A stretch of DNA of 64,000 nt from an uncultured Solirubrobacterales bacterium (GCA_963799995.1 CAWCZI010000012.1:1964492-2028491), one strand, 5' to 3'. Counted from the first letter of the stretch, positions 57 to 22,389 are shown. Program-made: numbers and translations. The notes: generated by a model from the letters alone, not told the origin.

Positions 57-752
57 TCAAGAACCGGCGTCTCGCAGGAGGTCGGTGGACCGCTGCATCG
101 CGTCGGCCAGGTGCCTGCGAGTCAGTGACTCAGCGCGGCGGCCGTTGCCGGCCTCGATGGCGGTCACGATCTGCTCGTGCTCGTCGGCATCGAGGCTCAT
201 GCGTTGCGGCGTCTCGCTCTGGCGTTCGTAGATCACCTCGCCGATCCGGGCCACCCAGAGGCGCTGCACGAACTGGAGCAGGAACCCGTTGCCCGACGCC
301 TGCACCAGCGCGATGTGGAATTCCCGGTTGGCGTCGAAGCTTCGCCGCACGTTTCCGATCGCCCGTCGCTGAGCGGACAGCGCGGCGTGCATCTGCGCCA
401 GCGGCGCCGGCGGTCGCTCGGCGGCGGCCAGCCTGGCGGCCCCGGGCTCGATCACGAGCCGGGCCTCATACGCCGAGCGCATGTCGGCCTGACCGACGTC
501 GGCGACACGGGCGCCGCGGTTGGTGCGCATCTCCACCAGCCCCTCGGCTGCCAGTCGGCGCAGCGCCTCGCGCACCGGGGTTCGTGACACACCAAGGTCT
601 TCGGCCAGGTCCTCCTGATGGATGCGCGCGCCGCGCTCAAGCTTGCCCTCGACGATCCGGTCGCGGATCACCGAGTACACCTGGTCGACCACGCTCGCGA
701 TCGCCAGCGGCACGGCGTCCGCGCGCGCCGGAGCTGTGGCGCTGCCCTCCAT
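57..752 (-). CDS. GntR/FadR-family transcriptional regulator (FCD domain)
   Basis: wHTH LGVSRTPVREALRRL; C-terminal FCD domain with NREFH and EHEQI. Confidence 0.93.
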   Translation of the reverse strand: MEGSATAPARADAVPLAIASVVDQVYSVIRDRIVEGKLERGARIHQEDLAEDLGVSRTPVREALRRLAAEGLVEMRTNRGARVADVGQADMRSAYEARLVIEPGAARLAAAERPPAPLAQMHAALSAQRRAIGNVRRSFDANREFHIALVQASGNGFLLQFVQRLWVARIGEVIYERQSETPQRMSLDADEHEQIVTAIEAGNGRRAESLTRRHLADAMQRSTDLLRDAGS

Positions 753-754
753 CG

Positions 755-1998
755 TTACACGGCGCCGGCCACGTCGCCGAGCGCCCCTTCCAGCGCATCG
801 ACCAGCTCGTCGATGTCGGCGTCGGAGATGATCAGCGGCGGCGAGAAGGCCACGGCGTTGGCATATGGCAGCGCGCGCGCGATCACACCCCGGGCCAGGA
901 GCGCCTCGACCACCCCCGCGGCGACCACCGGTGCCGCCGGCACGACTGCCTGCATCAGCCCCTCGCCGCGCACGCCGGCAACCTCATCGCGGCCACGCAG
1001 CTTGTCGAGGCCGTCACGCAGCCGCCGCCCGGCTGCCCGGGCGCGCTCGGGCAGCTGCTCGCGCCGCAGAATCTCCAGATTGGCCAGGCCGGCCGCGCAG
1101 CAGGTCGGGTGGCCGGCGTACGTGCCGCCGTGCGTCAGCAGGTAGGCCTCGTCGGCTTCGAGCCACTGCCTCGGGCGCGGACCGACGACGACACCGCCGA
1201 GCGGCAGGTACCCGCTGGTCACCGCCTTGGCGAACGTCATCATGTCCGGCGCGACGCCGTAGTGGTGGCTGGCAAACCACGAGCCCAGGCGCCCGAACGC
1301 GGTGATCACCTCATCGAAGATGAGCAGCGCGCCGCACTCGTCGCACAGGTTCCTGAGCCCCTGCAGATAGCCGTCTGCGGGGGGAACACGCCGCCGGCCC
1401 CGATCACCGGCTCGGCGAGGATCGCCGCGATCCGCTCCGGCCCGTGGTAGGCGACGGCGTCGCGCATCGCCTGCAGGCTGTCGTGGGGCACCTGGTAGGT
1501 GTCAGGCAGCAGGGGCCCGAACGGCGTCCGGTTGGAGGGCAGGCCACCGACCGAGGTGCCTCCGACCATCACGCCGTGGTAGGCGTTGTGGCGGCTGAGG
1601 AAGATCGTGCGCCCGGCTTCACCGTTGGCACGGTGACTGGCGCGAGCCAGCTTGAGCGCGCTGTCGATCGCCTCTGACCCGCTGTTGGTGAACAGCACCC
1701 GCGCGCCGGCGATCGGCTCGAGCTCCATGAGCACGTCCGCCAGGCGCTGTGCCGCCGGGTTGGTGAAGCGCCCGAACGTGTGGTACGCCTCCAGCTCGAG
1801 CATCTGCGCGTGCACCGCGTCGATGATCTCCGTACGGCCGTGGCCGGCCGCGCAGTACCACAGCGAGGCGGTGCCGTCGAGGTAGGTTCGCCCCTCGGAG
1901 TCCCACAGACGGCAGCCCTCGGCCCGGACGACGTCCAGGAAGTCGGCGGCGGCCCGCGCCGGCGCCGCGAACGGGTGAAGCGCTCGCGGGACGCTCAT
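755..1998 (-). CDS. Class III PLP aminotransferase (omega-amine/putrescine transaminase-like); one gene split by a frameshift at the G6 run 1379-1384
   Basis: ORF 1306..1998 gives the N-half (DGTASLWYC, NSGSEA, YHG, AEPVIGAGG). ORF 755..1309 gives the C-half (DEVITAFGR, TFAKAVTSGY with the PLP Lys, GGTYAGHP). One added base restores GGVFPPADGYLQGLR. Confidence 0.88.
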
Positions 1999-2852
1999 CG
2001 GGCTGCCTGCCCCACTTCGCGCTCCGCCTCTTCCTCGGAGATCGCGAGCGCCACATGGAGCGTCTGTGCCGTCACCGCCGGCTGCTCGCCGACCGGCTCG
2101 AGCTCCTCGTCGGACTGCACGACGTGATTCTCCAGGCGTCCGATCCCCTCCACCTCCACCGTCACCGTGTCGCCCGGGTCGACGGGACGCGAGTTGGCGG
2201 GCGTTCCGGTCAGCAGGACGTCGCCCGGCTCGAGCGTGATCAGCCGCGCGAGGTCGGCGATCTGATACGCGAACGAGAACATGAGGTCGGTGCCGGTATG
2301 GCCCTCCTGGACCTGCTCGCCGTTGACGAAGGTCCGCAGTGTCAGGTCCTCGGGGTCGACGTCGGCCGCGTCGACCATCACCGGGCCCAGAGGGCAGAAG
2401 CCGTCCTGGCCCTTGACGCGCAGCATCGACCCGCGGTCGGCATGGCGGAAGTCGTGCACGCCCCAGTCGTTGGCGACGGTGTAGCCGCCCACGTAGTCAA
2501 GCGCGTCGGCGAGGCTCACGCCACGGCAGCGACGGCCGATCACGACCGCCACCTCGCCCTCGTAGTTGAGGAAGCGGCAGCCGGGCGGCCGGGTCACCGG
2601 TGCCAGGTGCGCCGACAGCGACGATGGTGGCTTCATGAAGTACGAAGGGGTCTGCGGGAGCCGCGACATCATGTACTCCTGCGCGCGCGAGCGGTAGGTC
2701 AGGTGCGTGGCGATGATCTTCCCCGGCGTCACCGGCGACAGCCACTCGCTGACTTCGGCGACGGGAATCTCAGCCGCGCCGGCGCGGATGCTGTCCCCGT
2801 CCAGGGTGCCCTCGACCGGCTGCCCGTGGTGCACGATGCGGACGTGTCTCAT
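1995..2852 (-). CDS. Fumarylacetoacetate hydrolase-family protein (HpaG-like), 285 aa
   Basis: True start MRHVRIVHHG at 2852 overlaps the upstream stop (ATGA). Motifs FMKPPSSL, YEGEV, GYTVAND, KGQDGFCPLGP, PGDVLLTGTP. Confidence 0.9.
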   Translation of the reverse strand: MRHVRIVHHGQPVEGTLDGDSIRAGAAEIPVAEVSEWLSPVTPGKIIATHLTYRSRAQEYMMSRLPQTPSYFMKPPSSLSAHLAPVTRPPGCRFLNYEGEVAVVIGRRCRGVSLADALDYVGGYTVANDWGVHDFRHADRGSMLRVKGQDGFCPLGPVMVDAADVDPEDLTLRTFVNGEQVQEGHTGTDLMFSFAYQIADLARLITLEPGDVLLTGTPANSRPVDPGDTVTVEVEGIGRLENHVVQSDEELEPVGEQPAVTAQTLHVALAISEEEAEREVGQAAR

Positions 2853-3655
2853 ATCTCGACCTCCTGGCGGTGCTGGGCGACGACGTCGACGCCGTCGACG
2901 GTGTAGCCGAATGTGAAGCGGTAGCCGCGGAGCATCTCGCGCGGGGCGATGGCCTGCAGGTCCTCGAGGGTGTCGTCGTAGAAGCGCAGCTCCGCGCTGC
3001 CCTCCCAGATCGGTGTGGCGTCGCGGTCGCGCCCGCCGGCTCGGACGAGCTCGAACACGGCGGGCCGCGGCCCATTGGCCGCCGGGAAGTGGCGGGTGTT
3101 GTGCATCGGCGGGTCGTTGACCGTCGGTCCCGTCTGCGACACGTGTTCGAGCGTGACGACCAGACGGGCGATCTGGCGGTCGTTGGCGGCGCAGGTGGCG
3201 CCGAACCGGGCGCCCTCGTGCAGCTTGGGGGTCGCCTTGCCGGCGGCGAACAGGCGGGTCATGTGGATCGACCCGAGCTTCTTGGGAAAGCCCTGGATCC
3301 ACCCGCGGTACATGGCGAAGTCCTTGTCGACCCAGATGTAGACGCACCGGCTCACCGGCTCTCCCCGGTACCGAGCGCCGACGACGATGAAGAACTCGCG
3401 GTACTGGGACTGGACCGGATCGATCAGCTCGTGCCCGTCGGCCGAACACGACTGCCAGTCGGCGAAGATGGCGGCGACCGCACCGGGATCCTCGGCGGGC
3501 TCGAGCTCGTCGGGCAGCAGCGCGGCGACAGCGGCCGGGTCCGTCCGGTACTCGGCGATCAGGAAGTCGCCCGAATAGTGCCACGGCGGCGGCGGGACGA
3601 GGCCGGCCCGACCGTCCGGTGACAGCGGCGCGGTGTAGCCGCGCAGCGGGGTCAT
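2849..3655 (-). CDS. Acetoacetate decarboxylase-family protein
   Basis: PPPWHY motif, YREF, and G(W)IQGFPKKLG carrying the Schiff-base Lys motif. Confidence 0.85.
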   Translation of the reverse strand: MTPLRGYTAPLSPDGRAGLVPPPPWHYSGDFLIAEYRTDPAAVAALLPDELEPAEDPGAVAAIFADWQSCSADGHELIDPVQSQYREFFIVVGARYRGEPVSRCVYIWVDKDFAMYRGWIQGFPKKLGSIHMTRLFAAGKATPKLHEGARFGATCAANDRQIARLVVTLEHVSQTGPTVNDPPMHNTRHFPAANGPRPAVFELVRAGGRDRDATPIWEGSAELRFYDDTLEDLQAIAPREMLRGYRFTFGYTVDGVDVVAQHRQEVEI

Positions 3656-3721
3656 GCGCCAGCCCTCCGCAGCCGGCTCAAGCGCCAGCCCTCCGCAGCG
3701 GGGTCAAGCGGCAGCCCTCCG
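3642..3721. repeat. About 3 copies of a 26-nt tandem repeat duplicating the stop/RBS/start junction
   Basis: cagccctccgcagc(c/g)gg(c/g)tcaagcg(c/g) at 3660-3685 and 3686-3711, with partial copies on both sides. Confidence 0.85.
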
Positions 3722-4453
3722 GAGGGCGGCGCGGGCGTCGTGAAGCAGCTGCTCGAACAGGCCGCGCTGCTCGGGCTCATCCATCTTCTCCGGGTGCCAC
3801 TGGACTCCGACGCACGCCCAACCGGTCCGCGGCTCGACCGCCTCGATCACGCCGCCGGGCGCGGTGGCGGTTACCTCCAGCTCGCCGGGGTCCGCGATCT
3901 GGTGATGGTGGATGGTGTTGACACCGACCGTGTCCCGGCGCAGCGCCCGGGCGATGCGCGAGCCGGGGGCGAGCGTCACCGGGTGGCGCGAGGCCAGGAT
4001 CTCGTCCGGACGCAGCCCGGTCAGCTCGGGGTGCCCGCCCACCGCCGGCGGGCGCTGGGACAGCCGGCCGCCATGGGCGACCGCCAGCAGCTGGGCGCCG
4101 CGGCACACCGCCAGCATCGGCAGCCCGATCGCACGAGCCGCGCGGATGACGGCCAGCTCGAAGGCGTCAGCCTCCAAGTCGTCGTCGGCCACGTTCTCAC
4201 GCCCGGCGCCGTACGCGGCGGGATCGACGTCGCCGCCGCCGGTCATCAGCACGCCATCGGCGATCGCCACGAGCTCGCGTGCGGACTCCTCGCCGGACTG
4301 CGGCGGGCGGGAGACCAGCAGCGGTTGCCCGCCGGCCTCGCTGACCCGCTCCGCGTAGGCGGGGTCGAGCGTTTCGAGCCTGGTGTGCTCTCCCAGGAAG
4401 GTGGGCAGGTCCCGGCGCCAGCAGTTGACGAGGATCAGGGGACGGCGTTGCAT
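3704..4453 (-). CDS. Gamma-glutamyl-gamma-aminobutyrate hydrolase (peptidase C26/PuuD family), 249 aa
   Basis: LMTGGGDVDP, catalytic AVCRGAQ, VNTIHHHQI, QWHPE. Start placed at MQRRPLI (4453); the longer ORF-track N-terminus is translated repeat DNA. Confidence 0.9.
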   Translation of the reverse strand: MQRRPLILVNCWRRDLPTFLGEHTRLETLDPAYAERVSEAGGQPLLVSRPPQSGEESARELVAIADGVLMTGGGDVDPAAYGAGRENVADDDLEADAFELAVIRAARAIGLPMLAVCRGAQLLAVAHGGRLSQRPPAVGGHPELTGLRPDEILASRHPVTLAPGSRIARALRRDTVGVNTIHHHQIADPGELEVTATAPGGVIEAVEPRTGWACVGVQWHPEKMDEPEQRGLFEQLLHDARAALRRAAA

Positions 4454-5252: not shown

Positions 5253-6638
5253 TCAGCCGCCAACCCTAATCAGTTTCTTGTTGACGAACTCGTCGGCGCC
5301 GTAGCGACCGAGCTCGCGACCGAACCCGGAGCGCTTGACCCCGCCGAAGGGCAGCTCGGCTCCATCGGCTCCGACGACGTTGATGTAGACCATGCCGGCA
5401 TCGATCTTGTCCGCGACGCGCAGCGCCTGGTCGGGATCGTTGGTCATCACGTAGGAGCCAAGCCCGTACGGGGTGTCGTTGGCCAACTCGACGGCTTCGT
5501 CCTCCGAGCTCACCCGGTAGACCTGCGCGACCGGGCCGAAGAACTCCTCTCGGTAGGCGTCCATCTCGGGCTTGATGTCGGCCAGCACAGTGGTTGAGAA
5601 GAAGTTGCCCTCGTGGTCGCCGCCGGCCACCAGCCTGGCCCCCTGATCGACGGCGCGCTTGAGCTGGTCCGCGAGTCGGTCTGTCGCCGCCGAGGAGGAG
5701 AGGGGGCCGATCGCCGTGTCGGGCGAGGTGGGGTCGCCCGGCTTGACTGCGGTTATGGCAGCGGTGAATTTGTCCATGAACGGCTCGTACAGCTCGTCGG
5801 CGACGATGAATCGCTTGGCGGCGTTGCAGGACTGGCCGGTGTTGTCCAGCCGGGCGCCCACGGCAGCCTCGACGGCCCCGTCCAGATCGTCGGTGCCCAG
5901 CAGGATGAACGGGTCAGAGCCGCCGAGCTCGAGGACCACCTTTTTGAGATTGCGCCCGGCGATCTCCGCGACGGCGGTGCCGGCGCGCTCTGAGCCGGTC
6001 AGCGACACGCCCCGCACGCGCGGGTCGGCGATCACCCACTCGATCTGCTCGTTGGTGGCATAGATGTTGATGTAGGCGTCCGAAGGGAACCCGGCCTCGT
6101 GGTAGATCCGCTCGATCGCCTCCGCCGACTCGGGGCATTGAGGCGCGTGCTTGAGCAGGATCGTGTTGCCGATCACCAGATTCGGTCCCGCGAACCGTGC
6201 CACCTGGTAGTAGGGGAAGTTCCACGGCATGATGCCGAGCAACACGCCCAGGGAGCTGCGGCGGATGAACGCCGACCCGTCGCCCGCCAGCAGCTCGATC
6301 GGCTCGTCGGCCAGGAGCTTGGGGCCATTGTCAGCGTAGAAGCTGTAGATATCGACGCAGAAGTCCACCTCGCCGAGGGCCTGCTCGATCGGCTTGCCCA
6401 TTTCCCGCACGATGATCTCGGCCAGCCGCTCGCGCTGCTCGCCGTGCAACTCCCCCACGCGGCGAAGCAGAGCCGCACGCTCCTCCACGGTGGTCGACGC
6501 CGACCACTCGCGATGAGCCTTGTCGGCCCTGGCGATCGCGTCCTTGAGCTCCTCGTCGCTGATCGTCGGGTACTCCTTCACGACCTCGCCCGTCGCCGGG
6601 TTGACGACCGCGTAGTCAGCCGCCTGAACTTGAGCCAT
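5253..6638 (-). CDS. gabD: NAD(P)-dependent succinate-semialdehyde dehydrogenase
   Basis: IMPWNFPYYQ, KHAPQCP, TGSERAG, ELGGSDP, catalytic GQSCNA, EEFFGP; RBS GGGAGG upstream. Confidence 0.88.
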   Translation of the reverse strand: MAQVQAADYAVVNPATGEVVKEYPTISDEELKDAIARADKAHREWSASTTVEERAALLRRVGELHGEQRERLAEIIVREMGKPIEQALGEVDFCVDIYSFYADNGPKLLADEPIELLAGDGSAFIRRSSLGVLLGIMPWNFPYYQVARFAGPNLVIGNTILLKHAPQCPESAEAIERIYHEAGFPSDAYINIYATNEQIEWVIADPRVRGVSLTGSERAGTAVAEIAGRNLKKVVLELGGSDPFILLGTDDLDGAVEAAVGARLDNTGQSCNAAKRFIVADELYEPFMDKFTAAITAVKPGDPTSPDTAIGPLSSSAATDRLADQLKRAVDQGARLVAGGDHEGNFFSTTVLADIKPEMDAYREEFFGPVAQVYRVSSEDEAVELANDTPYGLGSYVMTNDPDQALRVADKIDAGMVYINVVGADGAELPFGGVKRSGFGRELGRYGADEFVNKKLIRVGG

Positions 6639-6806
6639 GTGACCCTCCCTTTTCTGGTCCCCGATCGTGCTCGCGGGGGCCGTCTTTGCTCTCCGAAACC
6701 GAACTCAGTCAGTCCTCGCGACGATACCTCAAGCACTGGGCTCCGAATATTCCAAGACCTCGGGCGAGTTCTGGCCGTTGCTGCGAACTGCGCACCTCGG
6801 GGCCCG

Positions 6807-7811
6807 TCAGCACGGGTTCCGACGAGCCCAGGCCAGGAAGTCGCGGGTTGCCTGCGGGGTACTGGCAAGCCGGCGTTCGCGCTGCTTGAGGGCGTGAGCG
6901 GTCTCCGAGCGGCTGAACACCCAGCCCAGCGTCTGAATCCGCCGCGCCATCAGGAACGTGGGCAGCTCGGCCGGCAACAGGTCGGGGAGCTCTCGAATCT
7001 GTCGGTAGCCGTCGACCAGGGCGTCCCGACGATCCCCCAGACTGCCAGTTCGGTCGTAGGGGTACAGGGCGACGGCGAACTCGTGCCCGTACCAGCTGTG
7101 TCCGCTGTCGTCGAAGTCGATGACGACGACCGCGCCGTCGTCGCAGACAAGGACGTTCTCGAACCCCAGGTCGCCGTGGATCAGCCCGAACCGATCCGGC
7201 CGTTCGCCGATCACATCCAGCCGCGCCCGGACCTCGGTCCGGCACGCCTCCAGCGCGGCCCGGTCATCCGCGGCGAACACGGAATGGGGGTCGGGCGGTC
7301 CCCACCGTGGATCGTCTCCCACCAGCGCCTCGGCGTCCCACGCGGGCCGCAAAAACCACGGGGGCGCCGCCCACGCGCGCGCGTGCGCGTGAATACGCGC
7401 CATTAATTCCCCCAGCCTCTCCCATGGCTTCACCTCGCTGACCGAACTCAGCGGTACGCCGTCGATCCACTCGAACAGCACCGCGGTGCGAGAGCAGCCC
7501 GGGCCGGCGGTCGCGGTCTGGAGCGGATCGCCATCGCATCCGGGCACCGCCGCGGCGGTCCGTACGCCGCTGCCCCGCAGGCTCTCCATCCACGCCAGCT
7601 CGGATCGAATCGCCGCGGCGGACTGGTATCCGGGCCGGTGAACGCGCAGGGCAAAGCGCCGTCCGTCCGGGGCGTGGATCCTGTACGTCGTGTTCTCGCC
7701 GTGGCGCACGAACGTGGCGCGGGCCTGTCCGCTGAACCCGAAGCGAGCCATCGCGTCGGCGACCAGAGCGGCCGGCAGCGGATCGCCGGCCACCTGGCCC
7801 GCCGACCTCAC
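6807..7811 (-). CDS. APH/choline-kinase-like phosphotransferase (amino-alcohol kinase type)
   Basis: ENTTYR, LRVHRPGY..AIRSELAWM, Brenner motif IHGDLGFENVL, IDFDDSG. GTGA overlap with the aminotransferase stop. Confidence 0.88.
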   Translation of the reverse strand: MRSAGQVAGDPLPAALVADAMARFGFSGQARATFVRHGENTTYRIHAPDGRRFALRVHRPGYQSAAAIRSELAWMESLRGSGVRTAAAVPGCDGDPLQTATAGPGCSRTAVLFEWIDGVPLSSVSEVKPWERLGELMARIHAHARAWAAPPWFLRPAWDAEALVGDDPRWGPPDPHSVFAADDRAALEACRTEVRARLDVIGERPDRFGLIHGDLGFENVLVCDDGAVVVIDFDDSGHSWYGHEFAVALYPYDRTGSLGDRRDALVDGYRQIRELPDLLPAELPTFLMARRIQTLGWVFSRSETAHALKQRERRLASTPQATRDFLAWARRNPC

Positions 7812-9115
7812 CGCGGGCTCTTGGCCCGCACGTGCCGGCTGGGGACGGGCCGGTCGACGTCCTTGGCGCGCTGCAGCGCGGCGTCGAGGCGCTCGAGCAC
7901 CGTGTCAGCGAGCGCATCCTCGAGCAGCAGGCCGGGCTTGAACTGCAGGACCGATTGGTCAAAGCCCGATGCGATCGCCCACACGCCGAGCTCGAACAGC
8001 TCCTGCTGCAGGTAGACGGCTCCGTCGGGGTGATCGACGCGCAGGCCGATCACGAGCCCGCTCTGGCGCACCTCGGTCAGGTACGGGTGGCGGTCGCGCA
8101 GCTCCGACAGGCCGCGGCCGACGTGCTCGATCAGGTGCGTGATCTGCGTCTGCACCGCGGGACGGGTCGTGATCTCCAGCACGCGCTCAGCAACCCGGCA
8201 GCCGATCTCGGCACCGCCGAAGGTCGAGACATGTCCCCAGCCGTTCTCGTGCAGCCACCCAGCGGCCCGCGCCGCGATCACCGTCGCCGCGATCGGATAC
8301 ATGCCGCCGGAGAGCCCCTTTGCGGTGACCAGGATGTCCGGCTGCACGCCGAAGGTCTCGACCCCCCACAAGCGCCCGGTGCGCCCCAGTCCCGTCTGCA
8401 CCTCATCGGCGATGTAGAGCGCCTCGTTCTCCTCGCACAGCGCCTTGACCGCGGGCAGATAACCGTCCGGCGGCACCGGGAAGCCATAGGTCGCCGGCAC
8501 CGTCTCTAGGAGCACCGCGGCCACGTCTCCCCTGGACATCTCGGCCGCGATCGCGTCGAGGTCGCCGAACGGCACCTTCGCGAACTGATCGGGCAGATCG
8601 GACAGGAAGTAGGCTGCCCCCGCGTCCTCGCCCGCGGCGCCCGAGAGTCCCGTGCGACCGTGGTATCCGGCGGCCAGCGTCACGATCCGCCGGCGCCCGG
8701 TCGCCCGCCGGGCGGTCTTGATGGCGACGTCGATCGCCTCGCTGCCCCCGGAGGCGAACACCGTGTACGCCAGGTCACCGGGGGTGAGCTCGGCCAGCCG
8801 GGCGGCCAGCTCGGCGCGAGCGGTGCTGGCGAAGTGGTGGTTTCCGATGTCCATCGTGGATGCGGCCGTGACCATCGCCTCCACAACCTCGGGGTTGCGA
8901 TGCCCGAGGTTGAAGGTGCCTCCGTTCAGGTGCAGGTCGATCAGCTCCCGGCCGTCGAGATCCCACAGCCGGTAGCCCTCGCGGCGGCCGATCACGAGCT
9001 GGGTGCCGAACGCCTCCCAGACGTCGACGCGGTGCGGGGCGACGTGCCGGCGGGTCAGCTCGAGCACGCGTTCCTTCTCGGATCCCCGGGCGCTCCCCGG
9101 GCCAGTGGAACTCAC
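7808..9115 (-). CDS. Class III PLP aminotransferase / putative phospho-lyase (AAU/RMM-like)
   Basis: HLNGGTFNLGHRNP, GGSEAID, YHGRTG, ETVPATYG, DEVQTGLGRTG, TAKGLSGG (PLP Lys), HVSTFGG. Confidence 0.9.
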   Translation of the reverse strand: MSSTGPGSARGSEKERVLELTRRHVAPHRVDVWEAFGTQLVIGRREGYRLWDLDGRELIDLHLNGGTFNLGHRNPEVVEAMVTAASTMDIGNHHFASTARAELAARLAELTPGDLAYTVFASGGSEAIDVAIKTARRATGRRRIVTLAAGYHGRTGLSGAAGEDAGAAYFLSDLPDQFAKVPFGDLDAIAAEMSRGDVAAVLLETVPATYGFPVPPDGYLPAVKALCEENEALYIADEVQTGLGRTGRLWGVETFGVQPDILVTAKGLSGGMYPIAATVIAARAAGWLHENGWGHVSTFGGAEIGCRVAERVLEITTRPAVQTQITHLIEHVGRGLSELRDRHPYLTEVRQSGLVIGLRVDHPDGAVYLQQELFELGVWAIASGFDQSVLQFKPGLLLEDALADTVLERLDAALQRAKDVDRPVPSRHVRAKSPR

Positions 9116-9885
9116 TCGTAGAACCCGTCCGGGGCCAACTTGAGCCGCTCGCGGTAGTCGAGATCGTGGGTGGCTATGAGCAGCGCGTCGTGCTCACGCT
9201 CGAGCGCCTCGATCCGCTCCCAGCTGGACACCATCGCATCCGGGCTCCACAGGACCGCCGGCAGCGCACGCTCGCGCATCTTGGCCAGCAGGTAGGTCGC
9301 GTCGGCGAGCAGGATGACCGTCTGTCCGCTGTCGAGCCTCACCATCAGCGACTGGTGCCCCCGGGAGTGACCGGGGGTGCTCAGCGCGACCAGGCGCCCG
9401 TCGCCGAAGATGTCGTGATCGCCGTCGAGCTGATGCCAGTCGAGCTCGTGCTCGAAGTCGGCGGCCACGTAGAGCAGGCGTTGGTACACCGGTGGCTGCC
9501 GCGCGAAGCTCAGCTCCTCGCGCTGCACCAGGACGGGTGCGTGGGTGAGCCACCCGAGGCCCCCGGCGTGGTCGAAGTGCAGGTGTGACTGGACCACGAT
9601 GTCGATGTCGGTGGGCTTCAGGCCGATGGTCGCCAGGCGCGCCTCGAGGTGGTCCTCGGAGCTCATCTGGACCTCGAACGACGCTGCCGCCGGCCCCAGC
9701 CGGGCCTCGGGATCGGTGCCCATCTGCGGGTGCACCCCGGTGTCGAACAGGACGTTGCCGCGCGGATGCGTGATGACGTACATGAAGTACGGGTTGTAGA
9801 CCTTCGTTCCCACGCGCTCGTCGAACGGGTCAAAGGCCGCCCAGTCCATCAGATCGCCGCCGCAGTGCAGCGCGTACAGCCTCAT
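9112..9885 (-). CDS. N-acyl-homoserine-lactonase-family metallo-beta-lactamase-fold hydrolase
   Basis: VLFDTG, SHLHFDHAGG (HxHxDH), TPGHSRGH, LADA; AiiA/AttM-like layout. Confidence 0.88.
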   Translation of the reverse strand: MRLYALHCGGDLMDWAAFDPFDERVGTKVYNPYFMYVITHPRGNVLFDTGVHPQMGTDPEARLGPAAASFEVQMSSEDHLEARLATIGLKPTDIDIVVQSHLHFDHAGGLGWLTHAPVLVQREELSFARQPPVYQRLLYVAADFEHELDWHQLDGDHDIFGDGRLVALSTPGHSRGHQSLMVRLDSGQTVILLADATYLLAKMRERALPAVLWSPDAMVSSWERIEALEREHDALLIATHDLDYRERLKLAPDGFYE

Positions 9886-11057
9886 CGTCGCACTCGCCCG
9901 CGGACCGCTTCGGCGGCGGCCTTCAGCGCCGAGCGCTCCGCGTCACTGAGGTTGAGCTCGACGATCTCGAGCACGCCGCCGCGACCCAGCACCGCGGGCA
10001 CCCCGAGGAACAGGTCCTCGATCCCGTATTCGCCCTGCAGATAGGCGGACACCGGGATCGCTCCGGCCTGGGCGCCGCGGATTGCCTGCAGCAGCTCGAT
10101 CGTCGCGTGGGCCGGCGCGACCGTGGCCGATCCAGTCCGGCGCAGGCTGACCACCGCGCCACCACCGGCGACGGTCTCACGGATGCACGCCTGGATTCGG
10201 TCAACGGGCAGCACGTCGACCAGCGGCCGGCCGCGGACGGTCGCGCCGGAGACGATCGGGACCATCTCGTCGCCGTGGCTGCCCAGCGTGATCGCCTCCA
10301 CGTCGAGCGGCTGGACCCCGGCGGCGGTGGCGATGGCGTTGCGAAAGCGGCTGGAGTCGAGCGTGGCGGCCATCCCGAGGACTCGCTCGGTGCCCAGCCC
10401 GCTCGCGCGCCACAGCTCATGGGTCATTTCGTCGAGAGGGTTGGTGACGACGATCACGACGGCGCTCGGGGCGAACTGCGCGATCGCCTCGCCGGCCCCT
10501 CTGATAACCGGGCCGTTGACCTGCATCATGGCGGCGCGATCCATGCCCGGGGTGCGGGGCCTGCCGGCGGTGACGACGACGACGTCGCAGCCTGCAATCA
10601 GGTCCAGCGTGGTTCCGCCGCGGGCCCGGGTCGGTGACCCGGTGATGCCCGACGCGTGCTCGATGTCGAGCGCGACCGACTCCGCGAGGCCGGGCACGAT
10701 GTCGATCAGGCAGATCTCATCCGCAAACCCGTCGATCGCGGCCAGATGAGCGGTGGTGGCCCCGACACCACCGGCGCCGATGAACCCCAGGCGCGTAAAG
10801 CGTGTGGGGGTCAGCCCGCGCGGCCTGTCGGATGCCACCCAGCGCGCGCCTCGGCGATACAGGCTGCGCCGGATCGCCCGGCCTGGATCCGCGCCGATCG
10901 GCGCCGGCTTCTCGAGCGGGCCGCGGACGATCTCCACGCCGAGGCGCTCGAGCGCATCGAGTGCCTGCGGCGTGACGATGTCGTCGTTGGCAACCACGAG
11001 CCGGCGCTGGCCGCGGCGAAATGCCTCGCGAACGTGCTCCTCGCCGACGACGTTCAT
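9882..11057 (-). CDS. mdh: LDH-like malate dehydrogenase with an N-terminal EutQ-N-like domain (about 85 extra aa)
   Basis: GAGGVG, LIDIV, TAGRPRTPGMDR (Arg at the malate-specificity position), VTNPLD, LDSSRF, GSHGD. N-terminus VREAFRRGQRRLVVANDDIVTPQALDALERLGVEI. Confidence 0.85.
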   Translation of the reverse strand: MNVVGEEHVREAFRRGQRRLVVANDDIVTPQALDALERLGVEIVRGPLEKPAPIGADPGRAIRRSLYRRGARWVASDRPRGLTPTRFTRLGFIGAGGVGATTAHLAAIDGFADEICLIDIVPGLAESVALDIEHASGITGSPTRARGGTTLDLIAGCDVVVVTAGRPRTPGMDRAAMMQVNGPVIRGAGEAIAQFAPSAVVIVVTNPLDEMTHELWRASGLGTERVLGMAATLDSSRFRNAIATAAGVQPLDVEAITLGSHGDEMVPIVSGATVRGRPLVDVLPVDRIQACIRETVAGGGAVVSLRRTGSATVAPAHATIELLQAIRGAQAGAIPVSAYLQGEYGIEDLFLGVPAVLGRGGVLEIVELNLSDAERSALKAAAEAVRGRVRR

Positions 11058-11665
11058 CAACGGCCTTCGAGGGCCTCCAGCGAGGACGCGGCGGTGTCGA
11101 TCGCCAGCCGTACGTCAGCTTCCGAGCCGGAGATGAACATCCGACCAAAGCGCCCCACGGTGCGCACCTCGACGATCTTGATCGTGGCCACCTTCTCGGC
11201 CTCGTTGGCCGCCGCGGCGATGTAGGCCGCGGGCCCGCACTCGAGAATCCCCAGGGTCTCGCCCGGCACGAGCAGCGATCCGCTGCGCCACTTGTTGAGC
11301 AGCTGCGCCTGGTAGGGCTCCACCGAGGTGATGATCTGGCTGGACTCGACGTTCGGGCGCCGGCGCTCGGTGAGGCTCATCCCGAGATGCGACAGGATCG
11401 CCTCGCGAGCGGCGCTCACCTCGGCGTTGGCGGGCGACCGCAGGATGAAGAAGCCAAATTCCCGCTCGACGATCTGCGAGGTCGCCTGGACGTCAGCCGC
11501 CTTCAGGGCGACGTCCACGACACGGAAGACCTCGTTGCCCGGACCGATCTCACCGACCAGGATGGTGTCGCCGGAGAGCGGAATCGAGCCCTGCACCGTG
11601 GCGCCGTTGTAGGCGGCGAACTGGGGCTGAAGCCGATCTATCTGCACCAGCGCGCGGAGGTCCAT
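11057..11665 (-). CDS. BMC shell protein, tandem-domain BMC-T (CcmP/CsoS1D-like double-stacking type)
   Basis: MDLRALVQIDRLQPQFAAY, EIGPG..VVDVALK, VEREFG, LECGPAAY...ANEAEK, GRFGRMFISGSEADV. Confidence 0.9.
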   Translation of the reverse strand: MDLRALVQIDRLQPQFAAYNGATVQGSIPLSGDTILVGEIGPGNEVFRVVDVALKAADVQATSQIVEREFGFFILRSPANAEVSAAREAILSHLGMSLTERRRPNVESSQIITSVEPYQAQLLNKWRSGSLLVPGETLGILECGPAAYIAAAANEAEKVATIKIVEVRTVGRFGRMFISGSEADVRLAIDTAASSLEALEGR

Positions 11666-11710
11666 CAGCTGTGCTCCGGGTAAAGGAGGTCCATCAGCTG
11701 GGCTCCGGGT
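11656..11710. repeat. 26-nt direct repeat (29-nt period) duplicating the AldDH stop / BMC-T start junction
   Basis: ggaggtccatcagctg(t/g)gctccgggt at 11656-11681 and 11685-11710. It creates the minus-strand mini-ORF MDLLYPEHS* (11694-11665). Confidence 0.85.
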
Positions 11711-13091
11711 CGAGGAGGTCGTTCAGCGACCGCCAGGGACGGGACTCGTAGGCGATCCGCTTGATGTTGATGAGATGAAGTGCGGTCACGTTGTCGGACA
11801 CGATCGATCCCGACCAGGTGCCGGTGCCGAGCATGAAGCTCGGGTCGATGTCACAGGAGAAGCCCATGCCGCCGTGCAGCGCCGGCGTGTTGACGAGCAC
11901 GCGGCCGGCAGGCAGGCGCGAGAATCGCGCCACGACGCTCGGATCGTCGGCGTGGACCACGGCGGTGTGGCCTTCGCCGCCGAAGCGCAGGACCTCGAGC
12001 GCCCGCTGCGCCCCCGCCTCGGCGTCGCCGACGTCGTAGAAGGCGAGGACCGGATCCAGCTTCTCGGCCGACAGGGGATCGCTGCGTCCCACGGTCTCGA
12101 GCTCCGCCAGCAGGACCCGCGTGCGGGGCGCCACATCGAAACCGGCCAGCTTGGCCAGGCGGGTCGCCGATTGCCCGACGTTCTCGACCTTCAAGCGAAG
12201 ATTGCGGTCGAACAGGACCTCCGCCAGGGACTCCGCCTGTCGCCTGGTGCACAGGTGGCCGCCCTGCTCGCGGATCGCGTGCCGCAGCCGCTCCGCGATC
12301 GGATGATCGGCGATCACGGCCTGCTCCGCGGCGCACGCCGTGCCGTAATCGAACGACTTGCTCGAGAGGATCATGTCCGCGACCTCGTCGAGGTCTCCCG
12401 CCTTGGAGCGATCGACGTAGACGGGAACGTTGCCGGGTCCGACCGCCAGCGTCGGCTTGCCCGAGGAGTAGGCCGCCCGCACCATCGCCGCGCCGCCGGT
12501 GGCCATCACCACGGCGATCCGGCGGTGGCTCATCAGCTCGCGCGTGCCGTCCAGGGTCGAGCCGTCCAGGCACTGGATCAGGCCCGGCGGCGCCCCCTCG
12601 TCCTCGGCGGCGTCGGCGAGGACGCGAGTTGTCTCGGCGCCGCAGTGGCGTCCCCGGGGATGCGGCGCGTGCACGATCGCGTTGCCGGCCTTCACCGCCG
12701 AGAGCGTCTTGAAGATGACGGTCGAGGTCGGATTGGTCACCGGGATCAGCGCGGCCACGACACCCATCGGCTCGCCGACCGCGATCACCTTGGTCGCCTC
12801 GTCGCGCCACAGCACGCCGAGGGTGCGGACGTTGCGCAACCAGTCCGACACCGCGATCGTGTTGAACAGGTTCTTGAGCGCTTTGTCGCCGGCGTTGCCG
12901 TACCCCGTCTCCTCAGCGGCGAGCTCGCCCAGGCGTGCCGCCTCGGGGGCGATCGCCCGCGCCATCGCCTCGACGACGCGATCGACGTCCGCCGGATCCC
13001 AGGTGCGGAACGTCAGCCAGGCCTCGTAGGCGCGGTCGGCCGCCCGCCGCGCCTGGGCGATCGAGTCCAGGTCGGGGTAGGCGAGCGTCAT
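11694..13091 (-). CDS. CoA-acylating aldehyde dehydrogenase (EutE/PduP/AdhE-N type), 465 aa
   Basis: Start MTLAYPDLD at 13091 (ATGA overlap). PVTNPTST, HAPHPRG, ATGGAAMVRAAYSSGKP, VGPGNVP, SKSFDYGTACAAEQ (catalytic Cys), EKLDPVL, GHTA. Confidence 0.92.
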   Translation of the reverse strand: MTLAYPDLDSIAQARRAADRAYEAWLTFRTWDPADVDRVVEAMARAIAPEAARLGELAAEETGYGNAGDKALKNLFNTIAVSDWLRNVRTLGVLWRDEATKVIAVGEPMGVVAALIPVTNPTSTVIFKTLSAVKAGNAIVHAPHPRGRHCGAETTRVLADAAEDEGAPPGLIQCLDGSTLDGTRELMSHRRIAVVMATGGAAMVRAAYSSGKPTLAVGPGNVPVYVDRSKAGDLDEVADMILSSKSFDYGTACAAEQAVIADHPIAERLRHAIREQGGHLCTRRQAESLAEVLFDRNLRLKVENVGQSATRLAKLAGFDVAPRTRVLLAELETVGRSDPLSAEKLDPVLAFYDVGDAEAGAQRALEVLRFGGEGHTAVVHADDPSVVARFSRLPAGRVLVNTPALHGGMGFSCDIDPSFMLGTGTWSGSIVSDNVTALHLINIKRIAYESRPWRSLNDLLDPEPS

Positions 13092-14190
13092 GCCAGCGCC
13101 TGCTCGAGCAGGGAGGCGTCGCCGCCGTCCAGGGCACGGCGGACGTCGTCGGGCCGGAAGCGGTCCAAACCAAGGCTCGGCAGGGTTCGCCCGTGCCGCG
13201 TGTAGTCGAGGCCTGCGAGGACCGAGCCGATATCGACGAGCGCAGCCGCGGTGCGAGTCGGGATGCCGGCCAGCGCGCCGGCGCTGATCGAGCGGCACCA
13301 GCGAGCAGCACAGCGCGTCGTGGACGCGGGGGTCGTCGCTCGCGAGCGCGGGACCGAGGTCCTCCTGCACCGGGGCCGGCGGGAGGTCGCGCACCCCGAA
13401 GGCAAACGCCACCCGGCGGCGCTCGTCGTCGATCCGCCGCGCGACCGACGCGAACTCGCGCAGCAGCGCCGGCGCGACGTCTCTGATTCCGGAGAGGTCC
13501 GAGAAGCTGGTCTCGAGCACACCGCGAGCGGGGATGAGCATCGGCAGCAGGGCCCGCAGCCGCTGCACCGCGTCCTCGGTGGCGCGGTTGGGCAGCGCCG
13601 CCGCGGGCACCTCCGCGCTCACGGCCGCGAGCGTGAGCGCACCCGGTTCAGAGGACTCGACCCGGTAGGGCGAAGCCGCCAGCTCGACGATCGTCGGAAG
13701 GTCCGGCGCAGGCGAAACGGCGCAGCGAGCGGGCGACCTCGACGGCCCCGAACGAGCGTCCTGGGACCAGCACCAGGAGCTGCTCGGGCCGCAGCCGGCC
13801 CGCCAGCAGGCCGCCGCAGGTGGCGTGGGCGATGCCGGGAGTCGCGACCAGGATCGCGTCGGCTTCGGTCACGGCGTCGTCGATCCCGGTTCTCAGGCCG
13901 ATCGCCGGCTGGGCGGATGGGCCGTCGGCCAGCCGGTAGGTGCCGACCAGATGCTCGCCCCGCACGGTCACCGCCCGCGGCGCGGCCAGCGCCGCGCGCT
14001 CGGGCTCGAATGCCGTGTGAAGCGTCACTTCGCACTCGGCCGCCAGACACTCGCAGGCCAGGGCCTGGCCCACCGGTCCGGCTCCCAGCACGGCGACGCG
14101 GCGCAGCGGGCGGCGCTCGGGCACCCCGGCCGCCGGCTTGACCTCGTTGAGGTCGGCCAGCAGCGCTTCGAATTCGCCGGCAGAGGTCAT
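13088..14190 (-). CDS. Opine (octopine/nopaline) dehydrogenase-like protein, frameshifted at about 13710 and 13291, apparently catalytically divergent
   Basis: Three frame segments: Rossmann VAVLGAGPVG...ADAILVATP...LVPGRSFGA; then PTIVELAASPY...LETSF...IDDERRRVA; then LVP..ISAGALAGIPT...GRTLPSLGL. This is the opine-DH domain order. Alternative start at 14211. Confidence 0.72.
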
Positions 14191-14215
14191 CCTCGCCGCC
14201 GACCGGGCCATGCGG

Positions 14216-14512
14216 CTACTCGCTGGCGGAGCCGGAGATCATCGAAGCGAGGTCGCCATGTGGCCGGGCGATGACATGGATCGACAGGACCTCGCCGACC
14301 TTGTTGGCGGCCACACCACCGGCGTCCGTCGCCGCCTTGACGGCGCCGACGTCGCCGCGGACGATCACCGTCACCAGGCCGCCGCCGACCCGCTCGTTCG
14401 TGACCAGCTCGACGTTCGCGGCCTTGACCATCGCGTCGGCGGCCTCCAGCGCTGGAACCAGGCCTCGAGTCTCGATCATCCCTAGCGCTACCTGCGGGGT
14501 TTCCGCCATCAC
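14216..14512 (-). CDS. BMC shell hexamer protein (BMC-H, EutM/PduA-like)
   Basis: [28 protein letters not shown]...[23 protein letters not shown]...HVIARPH. Confidence 0.96.
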
Positions 14513-14820
14513 TTGCTCCTTGTCTTGGTGGGCTGTTTGCGGCTCGACGTGCCGGCGTGCAGGTTGACGGCATCGACGATCGCGACGATCGTCAGGTCGG
14601 TGGCGGCCGCGCGCGACTGCGGCGGCTGCCGGGCCGCCGACCCGCGCGTGATCAGCACCTGATCACCGGGCCCGGCACCGACCGTGTCAACGGCGACCTC
14701 GGCCGGTCTGGCATCAGAACCGGCCGGGTCCAGCGGCTGGACGATCAACAGCTTGTGCGAGAGCAGGCTCTCGGTCTTCGCGGTCGCGGTCACCGAGCCG
14801 AGCACTTGCGCGAGCTCCAT
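14509..14820 (-). CDS. BMC vertex pentamer protein (BMC-P, EutN/CcmL family) with a basic C-terminal tail
   Basis: [48 protein letters not shown]. Confidence 0.95.
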
Positions 14821-14872
14821 CAGTGGCGCCCCGGGTGGCGGTTATGCTCGGCTATTTCCGCAATCATGGACG

Positions 14873-14889
14873 TTCGTGTACCGTATACA
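14873..14889. promoter_or_regulatory. Candidate GntR operator in the divergent BMC/oxidase promoter region
   Basis: Its reverse complement TGTATACGGTACACGAA is 15/17 identical to 19986-20002. Confidence 0.6.
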
Positions 14890-14918
14890 GTGACCCGAGG
14901 GAATGCAAGGGCCGGGCA

Positions 14919-14970
14919 CCGGGAGGACAGCTGATGGCCGGGACCCGGGAGGAGAGCTGATGGCCGGGAC
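14919..14970 (+). repeat. 26-nt tandem duplication of RBS plus start codon
   Basis: ccgggagga(c/g)agctgatggccgggac x2. The first copy encodes MAGTREES*, whose TGA overlaps the real ATG (TGATG). Confidence 0.85.
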
Positions 14971-16105: not shown

Positions 16106-16121
16106 AGGACGATCGGTCCGC

Positions 16122-16931: not shown

Positions 16932-16941
16932 GGCAGGCTCC

Positions 16942-19963: not shown

Positions 19964-19985
19964 ACAGGGCTCTCCCTTTCGTTAT

Positions 19986-20002
19986 TGCATACCGTACACG
20001 AA
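19986..20002. promoter_or_regulatory. Candidate GntR operator overlapping the putative glxB -10 box
   Basis: TGCATACCGTACACGAA. The minus strand reads TTGTGA-17 nt-TACGGT, followed by RBS GGGAG. Confidence 0.6.
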
Positions 20003-20049
20003 ACACGAGACCCTCACAAGACCACCCGGGCGCCGAGATGCAACAAGTC

Positions 20050-20763: not shown

Positions 20764-20772
20764 GGTCGCAGT

Positions 20773-21225: not shown

Positions 21226-21249
21226 CGTCTCACCTCGTATGCGGTGTTT

Positions 21250-21266
21250 CGCGTTCCGTACACGAT
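21250..21266. promoter_or_regulatory. Weaker copy of the candidate operator upstream of ridA-gntR
   Basis: CGCGTTCCGTACACGAT, 13/17 identical to 19986-20002. Confidence 0.4.
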
Positions 21267-21292
21267 AGCTCCGGGCGCGGGCGCCCGGGGGG

Positions 21293-22389
21293 TTAGTAGA
21301 CGATGACGCTGCGGGCTGTCTCCCCCGCCTGCATGCGCGCGAACGCATCGTTGACTTCGTCCAGCCCGCAGGTGGTGATAAGGGGTGCGAGGCGCAGCCG
21401 GCCGTCGCGGTAGAGGTCGACGAGGAGGGGGATGTCGCGCAGCGGCACGCAGGAGCCATACCAGGAGCCGCGCACGCACCTTTCCTCCAGGGTGGTCGTC
21501 AGCGCGTCCAGTGCCACCCGGGTCTCGGGTGAGGCCATACCGATCAGAACCGCCTGGCCGCCGCGGCTGGTCAGCGCCACCGCGGTGTCGATCGTGTCCG
21601 GACGTCCCAGCGCCTCGAAGGCGTGGTCGACGCCACCTCCGAGCAGCTCGGTGACGGCCTCGACGGGGTCGCACTCGGCGGCGTTCACGACCGCGGTCGC
21701 GCCCAGCTCGCGAGCCAGCTCGAGCTTGGCGGCGACGACGTCGACCGCCACGATCGTGCTCGCGCCCGCGATCCGTGCCCCCTGCACGACGTTGAGGCCG
21801 ACACCCCCGCACCCGACCACCGCCACGGAGTCGCCGGGGCGCACGTGCGCGGTGTTGATGGCCGCTCCCACCCCGGTCATGACGGCGCAGCCCATCAACG
21901 CGAGCTCGGTCAGCGGAAGGCCGGGATCGACCTTCACCGCCGTCCGCGCCGGCACCACCGAGCACTCGGCGAACGAGGACGTGTTGTAGTGATGAACCGG
22001 CTCCCCGTCACGGCTGAAAGCGGCACGTCCCGTCCTCCATCGTCGCGTCGTACCAGGCCGTGTTCTCGCAGATGTTCGGCCGCCCGCGCGCGCATTGGCG
22101 GCAGTGCCCGCAGTAGGGAAGCCAGGTCAGCAGGACATGGTCGCCCGGACGCAGGCCGACCACGCCCGGACCGACCTGCTCCACCACGCCCGCTCCCTCG
22201 TGGCCGAGGACGACCGGGAGCGAGGTCGGATGGATCGCCCTGGGCGACGTGAAGGTCGGAGTGGCAGACGCCGCTGGCCGCCATGCGAATCAGCACCTCG
22301 CCCGTCTTGGGCGGATCGAGCTCGAGGTCCTCGATCACGAGCGGCTGCCCGAATTCGTGCAGGACGGCGGCCCGTATCGGCGTCGACAT
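21293..22389 (-). CDS. Zn-dependent alcohol dehydrogenase (class III/aryl-alcohol type), two +1 frameshifts (about 22238 and 22019)
   Basis: ASGVCHSDLH, then (shifted) GHEGAG...CGHCRQC...C, then GCAVMTGVG, GCGGVG, GSWYG. The net frame change matches two single-base insertions. Confidence 0.85.

Follow-up and report, generated by a model that had tools for sequence, protein, structure and literature searches.

Vicinal amino alcohols can be broken down by an APH-fold kinase acting with a class-III pyridoxal phosphate (PLP) enzyme, as is the case for AGPHD1/AGXT2L2 (hydroxylysine kinase and phosphohydroxylysine phospho-lyase) and AGXT2L1 (ethanolamine-phosphate phospho-lyase). A pair of the AGPHD1/AGXT2L2 type converts such a compound into an aldehyde or semialdehyde, ammonia and phosphate, and to our knowledge no lactonase partner has been described for systems of this kind. 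The solved kinase 6ef6 is reportedly the (S)-1-amino-2-propanol kinase of the RMM bacterial microcompartment (BMC) of M. smegmatis. Another BMC type, MIC2, is catalogued with no known function (Sutter et al., 2021; PMC8217296, Supplementary Data 2); it comprises an aldehyde dehydrogenase (AldDh), an N-terminally extended pfam02866 dehydrogenase, a 6PGDH-like protein bearing a short encapsulation peptide and a glutamine synthetase (GS; pfam00120), its description names no metallo-beta-lactamase (MBL)-fold hydrolase, aminotransferase or kinase, and MIC2 genomes are stated to carry no other BMC type (PMC8217296). Here, we analyze a stretch of 64,000 nucleotides with ~70% G+C from an uncultured Solirubrobacterales bacterium (GCA_963799995.1 CAWCZI010000012.1:1964492-2028491; hereafter, the window), the closest relatives of which are uncultured Solirubrobacterales metagenome-assembled genomes (MAGs). 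In the window, an MBL-fold hydrolase of the N-acyl-homoserine lactone (AHL) lactonase type (hereafter, MBL), a class-III aminotransferase-family PLP enzyme (AT3) and an APH-fold small-molecule kinase (APH) are appended to a MIC2-type operon. We show that, in three deep clades, MBL has been kept as a translationally coupled partner of the aminopropanol-kinase-like kinase and of the class-III PLP enzyme, and that this MBL-(AT3)-APH cassette is older than its BMC link and mostly BMC-free.

The span 7808-9885 holds two minus-strand genes, encoding MBL (257 aa; 9112..9885) and AT3 (7808..9115; Pfam Aminotran_3, E 1e-76). MBL, labelled 'N-acyl homoserine lactonase family protein' by the sources, is a genuine di-metal hydrolase of the AHL-lactonase fold. 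Its Pfam match is Lactamase_B (E 5.9e-17), and among solved structures it is closest to AhlX (9kho/9khq, E 5e-37) and to AiiA (E ~1e-28). The HxHxDH motif reads H101-L-H103-F-D105-H106 and, together with H173, D195 and H240, provides the full metal-ligand set of AiiA (H104, H106, D108, H109, H169, D191 and H235); Y198 corresponds to the catalytic Tyr of AiiA (Y194). The catalytic Tyr lies three residues past the bridging Asp (D195-A-T-Y198, aligned with D-A-S-Y of AiiA), and the whole catalytic set is unchanged in 48 homologues that are 53-90% identical. The alignment of these homologues was used for an AlphaFold model (pLDDT 95.5), which superimposes on AhlX with a TM score of 0.93 and a root-mean-square deviation of 1.7 Å, and on AiiA with a TM score of 0.88; the group of AiiA, 4-pyridoxolactonase, GcL and AiiB gives 0.85-0.89, and the MBL-fold phosphotriesterases MPH and OPHC2 are less close (0.6-0.75). 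The AiiA/AttM-type layout, which the first-pass annotation had recognized, is therefore borne out, with all catalytic residues intact. Identity to lactonases in structural alignments is 26-32% (32% to AhlX), and the closest NCBIfam model, that of the AttM family (E 1.4e-55), is matched at 188.6 bits and its 390-bit cut-off is not reached; the scores and cut-offs for 4-pyridoxolactonase, AiiA and AhlS are 127.4/325, 126.5/375 and 97.2/475 bits, respectively. A tree that includes further MBL paralogues from the same genera (30-40% identity) places the subfamily, which is centred on Thermoleophilia, in a clade of its own (SH-aLRT 99); the subfamily also has invariant residues that are not common to AiiA (R62, R204, R206, H52, H177, Q178, E226 and E229). 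The model is compact from residue 2, in the first strand, to the C-terminus and bears no terminal extensions, and hence leaves no room for an encapsulation peptide. A plasmid search with the MBL protein returned only a Rahnella match of 39% identity, and a literature search on the AhlX entry 9KHO yielded nothing relevant.

MBL, AT3 and APH belong to one minus-strand operon in the order BMC-P, BMC-H, opine-dehydrogenase-like protein, acylating AldDh, BMC-T, lactate/malate dehydrogenase (LDH/MDH)-family protein, MBL, AT3 and APH, followed after a 168-nt gap by an aldehyde dehydrogenase (ALDH) resembling succinate-semialdehyde dehydrogenase (SSADH). The proposed translational coupling of the hydrolase between the MDH and the aminotransferase was confirmed: the MDH stop and MBL start share a 4-nt ATGA overlap, the MBL stop and AT3 start, like the AT3 stop and APH start, share a 4-nt GTGA overlap, and identical 4-nt overlaps are retained in at least eight related loci. 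The E-values of the family matches and the conserved synteny are far beyond chance. A scan for promoters and terminators gave nothing significant within the operon.

The kinase gene (6807..7811, minus strand; Pfam APH) encodes a protein whose best solved relative is the aminopropanol kinase 6ef6 (E 1.3e-44), and which, judged by these profiles, resembles that enzyme and not a type II homoserine kinase, since it reaches just 23.9 and 28.9 bits against the ThrB_alt/PRK05231 models (cut-offs 255.9 and 271, respectively). The route through homoserine lactone and a type II homoserine kinase, raised in the first-pass annotation, is thus disfavoured. Homoserine lactone was dropped as a candidate because the kinase is not ThrB-like and because known phospho-lyase chemistry needs a vicinal amine and hydroxyl, which homoserine does not have. 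AT3 scores 172.6 bits against the fused kinase-aminotransferase models PRK06148/06149 (cut-off 1128), and the solved structures closest to it are those of PigE and putrescine aminotransferase.

The ALDH gene (5253..6638, minus strand; Aldedh, E 4e-134) begins with an ATG 168 nt after the APH stop and is preceded by an AGGGAGG ribosome-binding site; the gap (6639-6806) contains no copy of the shared GntR operator motif. Its description as an SSADH lying 170 nt past the operon stands as to position and general type, but the protein is below all SSADH cut-offs (best NCBIfam SSADH model 496.7 bits against 730). Among the relatives it is a variable accessory gene of the cassette, following APH in seven of the ten BMC-linked loci and in one BMC-less locus, and absent from the remaining three BMC-linked ones. 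In three relatives (L023, L082 and L135) it overlaps the kinase gene by 8 nt, hence it is a true operon member in some genomes, though optional overall. With MBL below the AttM cut-off and ALDH below the SSADH cut-offs, and with ALDH present in only part of the BMC-linked loci, the suggested analogy to the Agrobacterium AttM/BlcC lactonase and its BlcA partner is weak.

The distribution of the cassette was followed in 78 MBL loci: 75 recovered by scanning GTDB with a single genome for each species (MBL identity 52-89%), two metagenome loci and the window itself. An APH orthologue lies within 5 kb of MBL in 34 of these, so that the co-occurrence with the kinase in other genomes, which the first-pass annotation had suggested examining, is indeed found; AT3 orthologues accompany MBL in 25 loci, another class-III aminotransferase adjoins it in 17, and MIC2-type shell genes are present in 10. 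Where MBL reaches 75% identity or more to that of the window (24 loci), APH or another class-III aminotransferase adjoins it in every case. The MBL tree shows the association with APH and AT3 in three deep clades (Solirubrobacterales, Thermoleophilaceae/Gaiellaceae and freshwater Gaiellales), and the BMC-linked loci are confined to one shallow clade, intermixed with BMC-less ones. In the two clades closest to the window, the majority of loci have MBL, AT3 and APH, or MBL and APH, joined by 4-nt overlaps, and the pairing of MBL with APH persists despite loss of AT3 and changes in gene orientation. Viewed from the aminotransferase, MBL adjoins AT3 in four of six loci with AT3 at least 70% identical in a metagenome scan. 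Kinase searches covering 400 genomes from the class and 400 from the family turned up just two more orthologues, hence the reverse, kinase-centred co-occurrence test has little power.

The compartment next to the cassette has a MIC2-type core and is not of the aminoacetone (RMM/AAUM) type. All its genes lie on the minus strand, starting with BMC-P at the operon start (14509..14820) and BMC-H (14216..14512), both recognized by shell-protein matches. The opine-dehydrogenase-like gene (13088..14211) is in three frames in the present assembly and encodes a protein with an N-terminal helix; its intact homologue in locus L110, described below, matches Pfam Octopine_DH. It is followed by the EutE/PduP-like acylating AldDh (11694..13091; TIGR02518, E 5e-139, over residues 184-628 of a long open reading frame), the start of which we infer at an MTLAY motif, by a double-stacking, CcmP-like BMC-T identified with family profiles (11057..11665) and by the LDH/MDH-family dehydrogenase (9882..11060), in which Ldh_1_N and Ldh_1_C cover residues 91-385 and leave an N-terminal extension of ~90 aa. 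AldDh, the N-extended LDH/MDH and a protein of the 6PGDH/opine-dehydrogenase superfamily with a short N-terminal helix fit the corresponding parts of the MIC2 description. A glutamine-synthetase gene is not found inside the window operon; a GS-like gene is located at C12:1961421-1962416, ~2 kb past the left edge of the window and beyond the GntR gene. This left-flank GS-like gene, together with the C26 peptidase, DAO, ALDH and second aminotransferase, makes up a set resembling Puu-type gamma-glutamylation. Neither a Pta nor a PduL gene was seen in the window operon. The encapsulated opine-dehydrogenase-like protein is a candidate for the generator of the aldehyde.

Two features of RMM1, namely the aminopropanol dehydrogenase of the short-chain dehydrogenase/reductase (SDR) family and a second BMC-T, are not in the window operon. 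A complete RMM1 locus is found on another contig of the same genome (G000:C14:705500-725400; L119) in the order AT3, AldDh, BMC-T, BMC-P, BMC-H, BMC-T, APH, SDR, GntR(UTRA) and amino-acid permease, with no MBL; the organism therefore already has an aminoacetone/aminopropanol compartment. The AT3-APH pair of the window is paralogous to the pair of this locus, the two AT3 proteins being 54% identical. In seven relatives (L018, L023, L024, L034, L067, L082 and L135) an RMM1-type locus lies 2-4 kb downstream of the cassette. The presence of MIC2 and RMM1 in one genome differs from the 2021 catalogue statement on MIC2 genomes.

Another MIC2-like locus, L110 (G071:C19:16000-35900), comes from a different family of the same class and has the order DAO, GntR, three MgsABC-like genes, GS-like gene, BMC-P, BMC-H, opine-dehydrogenase-like gene, AldDh and BMC-T, followed by unrelated genes. 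The GS-like and MgsABC-like genes stand directly upstream of its shell genes, with DAO divergent, and this layout ties MIC2 to an amine pathway of the gamma-glutamyl/N-alkylglutamate type. MDH, MBL, AT3 and APH are all absent from L110, and the MIC2 description names none of the last three; absence of the hydrolase from otherwise syntenic BMC loci, named beforehand as an outcome that would refute the proposed entry of a lactone, is thus seen in part. Moreover, MBL, AT3 and APH have equal lengths with or without a BMC, and none carries a targeting-type extension. The idea that a lactone, and not aminoacetone, is the form in which the BMC substrate enters is consequently upheld only in that a lactonase-type enzyme is tied to the kinase; the compartment is of the MIC2 type, the cassette is independent of it and its enzymes bear no targeting extensions. 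Since the cassette is older and usually BMC-free, the hydrolase points to an unstudied breakdown route for an amino compound, and not to the substrate of the compartment.

How the two came together can be read from the BMC-less locus L017, whose MBL, AT3 and APH are 89%, 88% and 72% identical to those of the window. Its genes run NAD-kinase-like, GcvPA-like, GcvPB-like, isochorismatase, ribonucleotide reductase (RNR)-small-subunit-like, cytochrome P450, a cytosolic aldehyde dehydrogenase (ALDH'), Zn alcohol dehydrogenase (ZnADH), MBL, AT3, APH, C26 peptidase, acetoacetate-decarboxylase-like (ADC-like), FAA-hydrolase-like and GntR. The window keeps this gene order at 72-92% identity, with three differences. 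An 11.4-kb block (~9903-21296), consisting of a RidA-like gene, GntR, MgsABC-like genes, an alpha/beta hydrolase, DAO and the whole MIC2 core, stands exactly between ZnADH and MBL; the window additionally has the SSADH-like ALDH and a second aminotransferase; and it lacks ALDH' and the RNR-like gene. Two more BMC-bearing genomes, G661 and G016, are arranged as the window is. From this synteny, the BMC block looks to have been inserted beside a pre-existing cassette.

ALDH' (L017:7392-8828), for which the corresponding window position is between 22389 and 22402, is lactaldehyde-dehydrogenase-like (470 bits against a 650-bit cut-off). Its orthologue, at 83-100% identity, was found in five of five BMC-less genomes with the cassette, which also have an RNR-small-like gene, and no match at E <=1e-100 in five of five further BMC-bearing genomes, the genomes being kin so that these counts are not independent. 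In the window's own genome (G000), the best match to ALDH' has only 41% identity; altogether, ALDH' was not found in whole-genome searches of six BMC-bearing genomes, nor at the locus in two others. Among the close relatives examined, the shell/AldDh block and the cytosolic ALDH' are mutually exclusive, and the simplest reading of this pattern would be a replacement, within one pathway, of a cytosolic ALDH by the encapsulated acylating AldDh.

The flanks of the shared island can be placed in the window as follows, all on the minus strand. The class-III-type ZnADH (21296..22389, frameshift-split), which stands directly upstream of the MBL gene in BMC-less relatives, is followed outward by the frameshifted P450 (22402..23656), a part of the conserved island by synteny. 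On the other side, the island tail, also assigned by synteny, comprises Peptidase_C26 (3704..4453), the ADC-like gene (2849..3655) and the FAA-hydrolase-family gene (1995..2852), beyond which profiles and synteny identify the frameshifted second class-III aminotransferase (755..1998) and the GntR regulator (57..752). The frameshift-split genes (755-1998, 13088-14211, 21296-22389, 22402-23656 and a GS-like gene at 44205-45174) have unbroken orthologues in relatives, the assemblies of which are MAGs of high contiguity, so that the splits more probably reflect assembly indel errors than pseudogenes. A motif search identified an operator-like palindrome, CTGTATACGGTACAC, on the minus strand upstream of the BMC operon (14876..14890); a second copy with 3 mismatches lies at 19985-19999, upstream of the MgsABC-like genes, and the search gave 3 matches against 0.25 expected.

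The immediate neighbours of MBL in other genomes bear on its substrate. In BMC-less loci a dehydrogenase always stands directly upstream, being the class-III-type ZnADH in Solirubrobacterales and a Gfo/Idh/MocA protein in freshwater Gaiellales; a dehydrogenase followed by a lactonase is a classical route for opening a lactol. At least 15 protein clusters fuse an N-terminal Ldh_2-family dehydrogenase to a C-terminal MBL, and in a Microbacterium protein MBL is joined to an NCS1 permease; the MBL domains of both kinds of fusion (proteins P0123-P0138 and P0121) place inside the subfamily clade, and no Ldh_2-MBL fusion was found in the 400 searched genomes of the phylum. In the freshwater clade, a near-canonical GabD-type SSADH and a PRK08199-type thiamine pyrophosphate (TPP) enzyme lie upstream of MBL and an MttB-family gene downstream. 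Loci of this kind in freshwater Gaiellales/Thermoleophilia (L083:6862-15240, L080, L086, L087 and L079) read GabD-like SSADH, PRK08199 TPP enzyme, MBL, a second MBL and MttB-family methyltransferase, with the Gfo/Idh/MocA gene and AT3-APH present only sometimes. Another recurrent module joins a different class-III aminotransferase, MBL and then a split transketolase (L036:8727-20768, L060:6478-15738 and L030:8754-12617), the L060 homologue of MBL being that of Mesorhizobium loti, with 61% identity; its companions in Thermoleophilaceae and Mesorhizobium are E1 subunits, a class-IV aminotransferase and ABC transporters of the amino-acid or peptide type. Such neighbours and fusions would point to a small, polar, amine-bearing ring compound, and the subfamily routinely annotated as 'N-acyl homoserine lactonase' probably acts in catabolism, judged by its gene contexts, as a lactonase on a small polar amino compound.

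We tentatively favour, at somewhat short of an even chance, the view that MBL is a cytosolic di-metal lactone (cyclic-ester) hydrolase, the first gene of the old MBL-AT3-APH cassette, which opens a lactone before the kinase acts. A lactone-opening step ahead of the kinase is a reasonable reading because MBL is coupled to the kinase and the PLP enzyme across three deep clades. In such a pathway, an amino-bearing lactone would be imported, or made by the dehydrogenase always found directly upstream; MBL would open the ring in the cytosol, leaving a hydroxyl beside the amine; the APH kinase would phosphorylate this freed hydroxyl; and AT3, in the role put forward for its RMM paralogue, would eliminate both phosphate and ammonia and so yield an aldehyde or semialdehyde acid. 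In BMC-less genomes the aldehyde would be oxidized by the cytosolic ALDH', and in the lineage of the window it might be taken by the acylating AldDh of the inserted MIC2-type compartment and/or by the SSADH-like ALDH. Thus, it is from gene content and family relationships that we infer a lactone substrate, the order MBL, kinase and PLP enzyme, the lyase chemistry and the entry of the aldehyde into the compartment. Given the vicinal requirement, the remaining candidates would be hydroxy-omega-amino-acid lactones, or ring-opened products that undergo further processing; 5-amino-4-hydroxypentanoate lactone, 5-hydroxylysine lactone, morpholin-2-one, amino-aldonolactones and vitamin-B6-type lactones were considered as substrates. 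That the cassette as a whole represents an undescribed route, in which a hydroxy-amino-acid lactone is opened and phosphorylated and then loses phosphate and ammonia via the PLP enzyme, and which was plugged into MIC2 in one Solirubrobacterales lineage by the swap of ALDH, is a more speculative proposal that we regard as rather unlikely to hold in full.

Several observations weigh against a lactone-opening step of this kind. MBL is under the curated cut-off of every named lactonase family (AttM, AiiA, AhlS, YtnP, AidB and 4-pyridoxolactonase), and the invariant R62, R204 and R206 hint at an anionic group on the substrate, which is not expected of a simple amino-lactone. The sequences nearest to AT3 are true transaminases (PigE, putrescine aminotransferase and ArgD) and not characterized phospho-lyases; the lyase step therefore rests on its identity to the RMM-locus enzyme, for which such a role has reportedly only been proposed, as a candidate phospho-lyase, and AT3 may be a plain transaminase. 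Nine loci, two of them BMC loci, have MBL and APH without AT3, in 32 of the 78 loci neither the kinase nor a class-III aminotransferase is near MBL, and the order of reactions is not proven by the order of genes.

Possibly, MBL serves a separate lactone/keto-acid branch with the adjacent 2-hydroxy-acid or alcohol dehydrogenase, and perhaps the ADC-like and FAA-hydrolase-like proteins, while AT3 and APH handle some other amino alcohol. The dehydrogenase that always adjoins MBL or is fused to it (ZnADH, Gfo/Idh/MocA or Ldh_2) fits such a division, as do the freshwater clade, where the GabD-like SSADH and TPP enzyme are conserved and AT3 with APH occurs in only 5 of 25 loci, and those clades in which MBL is paired with a different class-III aminotransferase and the split transketolase and no kinase is present. 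However, two independent branches would not readily account for the 4-nt overlaps that join MBL to AT3 and APH, or to APH alone, in most loci of the two nearest clades, nor for an MBL-APH pairing that outlasts AT3 loss and reorientation; hence, we consider this explanation doubtful, but worth keeping in view. An action of MBL after the kinase, on a phosphorylated or anionic intermediate (as a phosphoester or cyclic-phosphate hydrolase), or as a proof-reading/repair hydrolase, would suit the invariant Arg62, Arg204 and Arg206 and the occurrence of the phosphotriesterases MPH and OPHC2 among the structural neighbours. Nevertheless, MBL retains the full AiiA-type catalytic set including Tyr198, and its closest folds are all lactonases (TM 0.85-0.93, against 0.6-0.75 for the phosphotriesterases), which makes this role improbable.

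The chance that MBL is a quorum-quenching AHL lactonase merely located in this operon appears slight. The source annotation and the AHL lactonases among the nearest solved structures speak for it, but the protein scores under the AiiA, AttM, AhlS, YtnP and AidB cut-offs, shares just 32% identity with AhlX, and is kept in catabolic operons with amino-acid-type transporters, aminotransferases and the kinase. We give equally little credence to a lumenal, glyoxalase-II-like thioesterase that would recycle CoA in a compartment devoid of a phosphotransacylase. Hydrolase-based recycling of CoA has been raised for RMM loci (Axen et al., 2014), and the lack of a visible Pta or PduL gene in the window operon agrees with that idea; yet most subfamily members are BMC-free, MBL has no targeting extension and it falls outside the glyoxalase II clade.

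Returning to the lactone-opening cassette and its BMC link, MIC2 is one of many catalogued BMC types for which neither the substrate nor the aldehyde-generating enzyme is known. In the window, its core sits within a conserved island for an amino compound, and the mutual exclusivity of the inserted block and ALDH' amounts to a natural experiment, one that suggests from which pathway the compartment takes its aldehyde. If the cassette was indeed plugged into MIC2 as proposed, this would provide the first concrete handle on the aldehyde of MIC2, as well as a natural example of a BMC module inserted in a pre-existing operon; and if the MBL subfamily is catabolic, an annotation widespread in soil Actinomycetota would be corrected. 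Drawn as it is from comparative genomics, the whole finding is a well-defined lead on a catabolic cassette and on MIC2 function, not a discovery.

Compared with described systems, MBL resembles the AHL-lactonase clade (AiiA of Bacillus thuringiensis, AhlX 9khq, AiiB/AttM of Agrobacterium and 4-pyridoxolactonase of Mesorhizobium loti) in its fold, its length (~250-275 aa) and the pattern HxHxDH...H...D..Y...H, but it is only 26-32% identical to these enzymes, forms its own subfamily with extra invariant residues, and is accompanied in genomes by a kinase, class-III aminotransferases and dehydrogenases rather than by quorum-sensing or blc genes. Similarly to Agrobacterium blcABC (attKLM), the window combines a lactonase-type MBL, an SSADH-like ALDH and a dehydrogenase in an operon; unlike blcABC, its MBL is no AttM equivalog, its ALDH is below the SSADH cut-offs and optional in relatives, its regulator is of the GntR type, and its conserved partners, the kinase and the PLP enzyme, are absent from blc. 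With AGPHD1/AGXT2L systems the window shares the pairing of an APH-fold kinase and a class-III PLP enzyme, whereas its AT3 is closer to PigE, putrescine aminotransferase and ArgD. The RMM1/AAUM locus of M. smegmatis is likewise similar in having an APH homologous to the aminopropanol kinase and in the same logic of a kinase and a class-III PLP enzyme; the window differs from it in having no SDR, one BMC-T instead of two, and LDH/MDH-like and opine-dehydrogenase-like proteins. These latter features, along with AldDh, BMC-P, BMC-H and BMC-T(dp), are those of MIC2, in which the LDH/MDH bears an N-terminal extension of ~70-90 aa and the other protein is of the 6PGDH/opine-dehydrogenase kind. In contrast to the catalogued MIC2 loci, the window operon has no GS gene inside it, a GS-like gene lying ~2 kb past the left edge of the window, has MBL, AT3, APH and ALDH appended to its core, and is accompanied by an RMM1 locus in the same genome.

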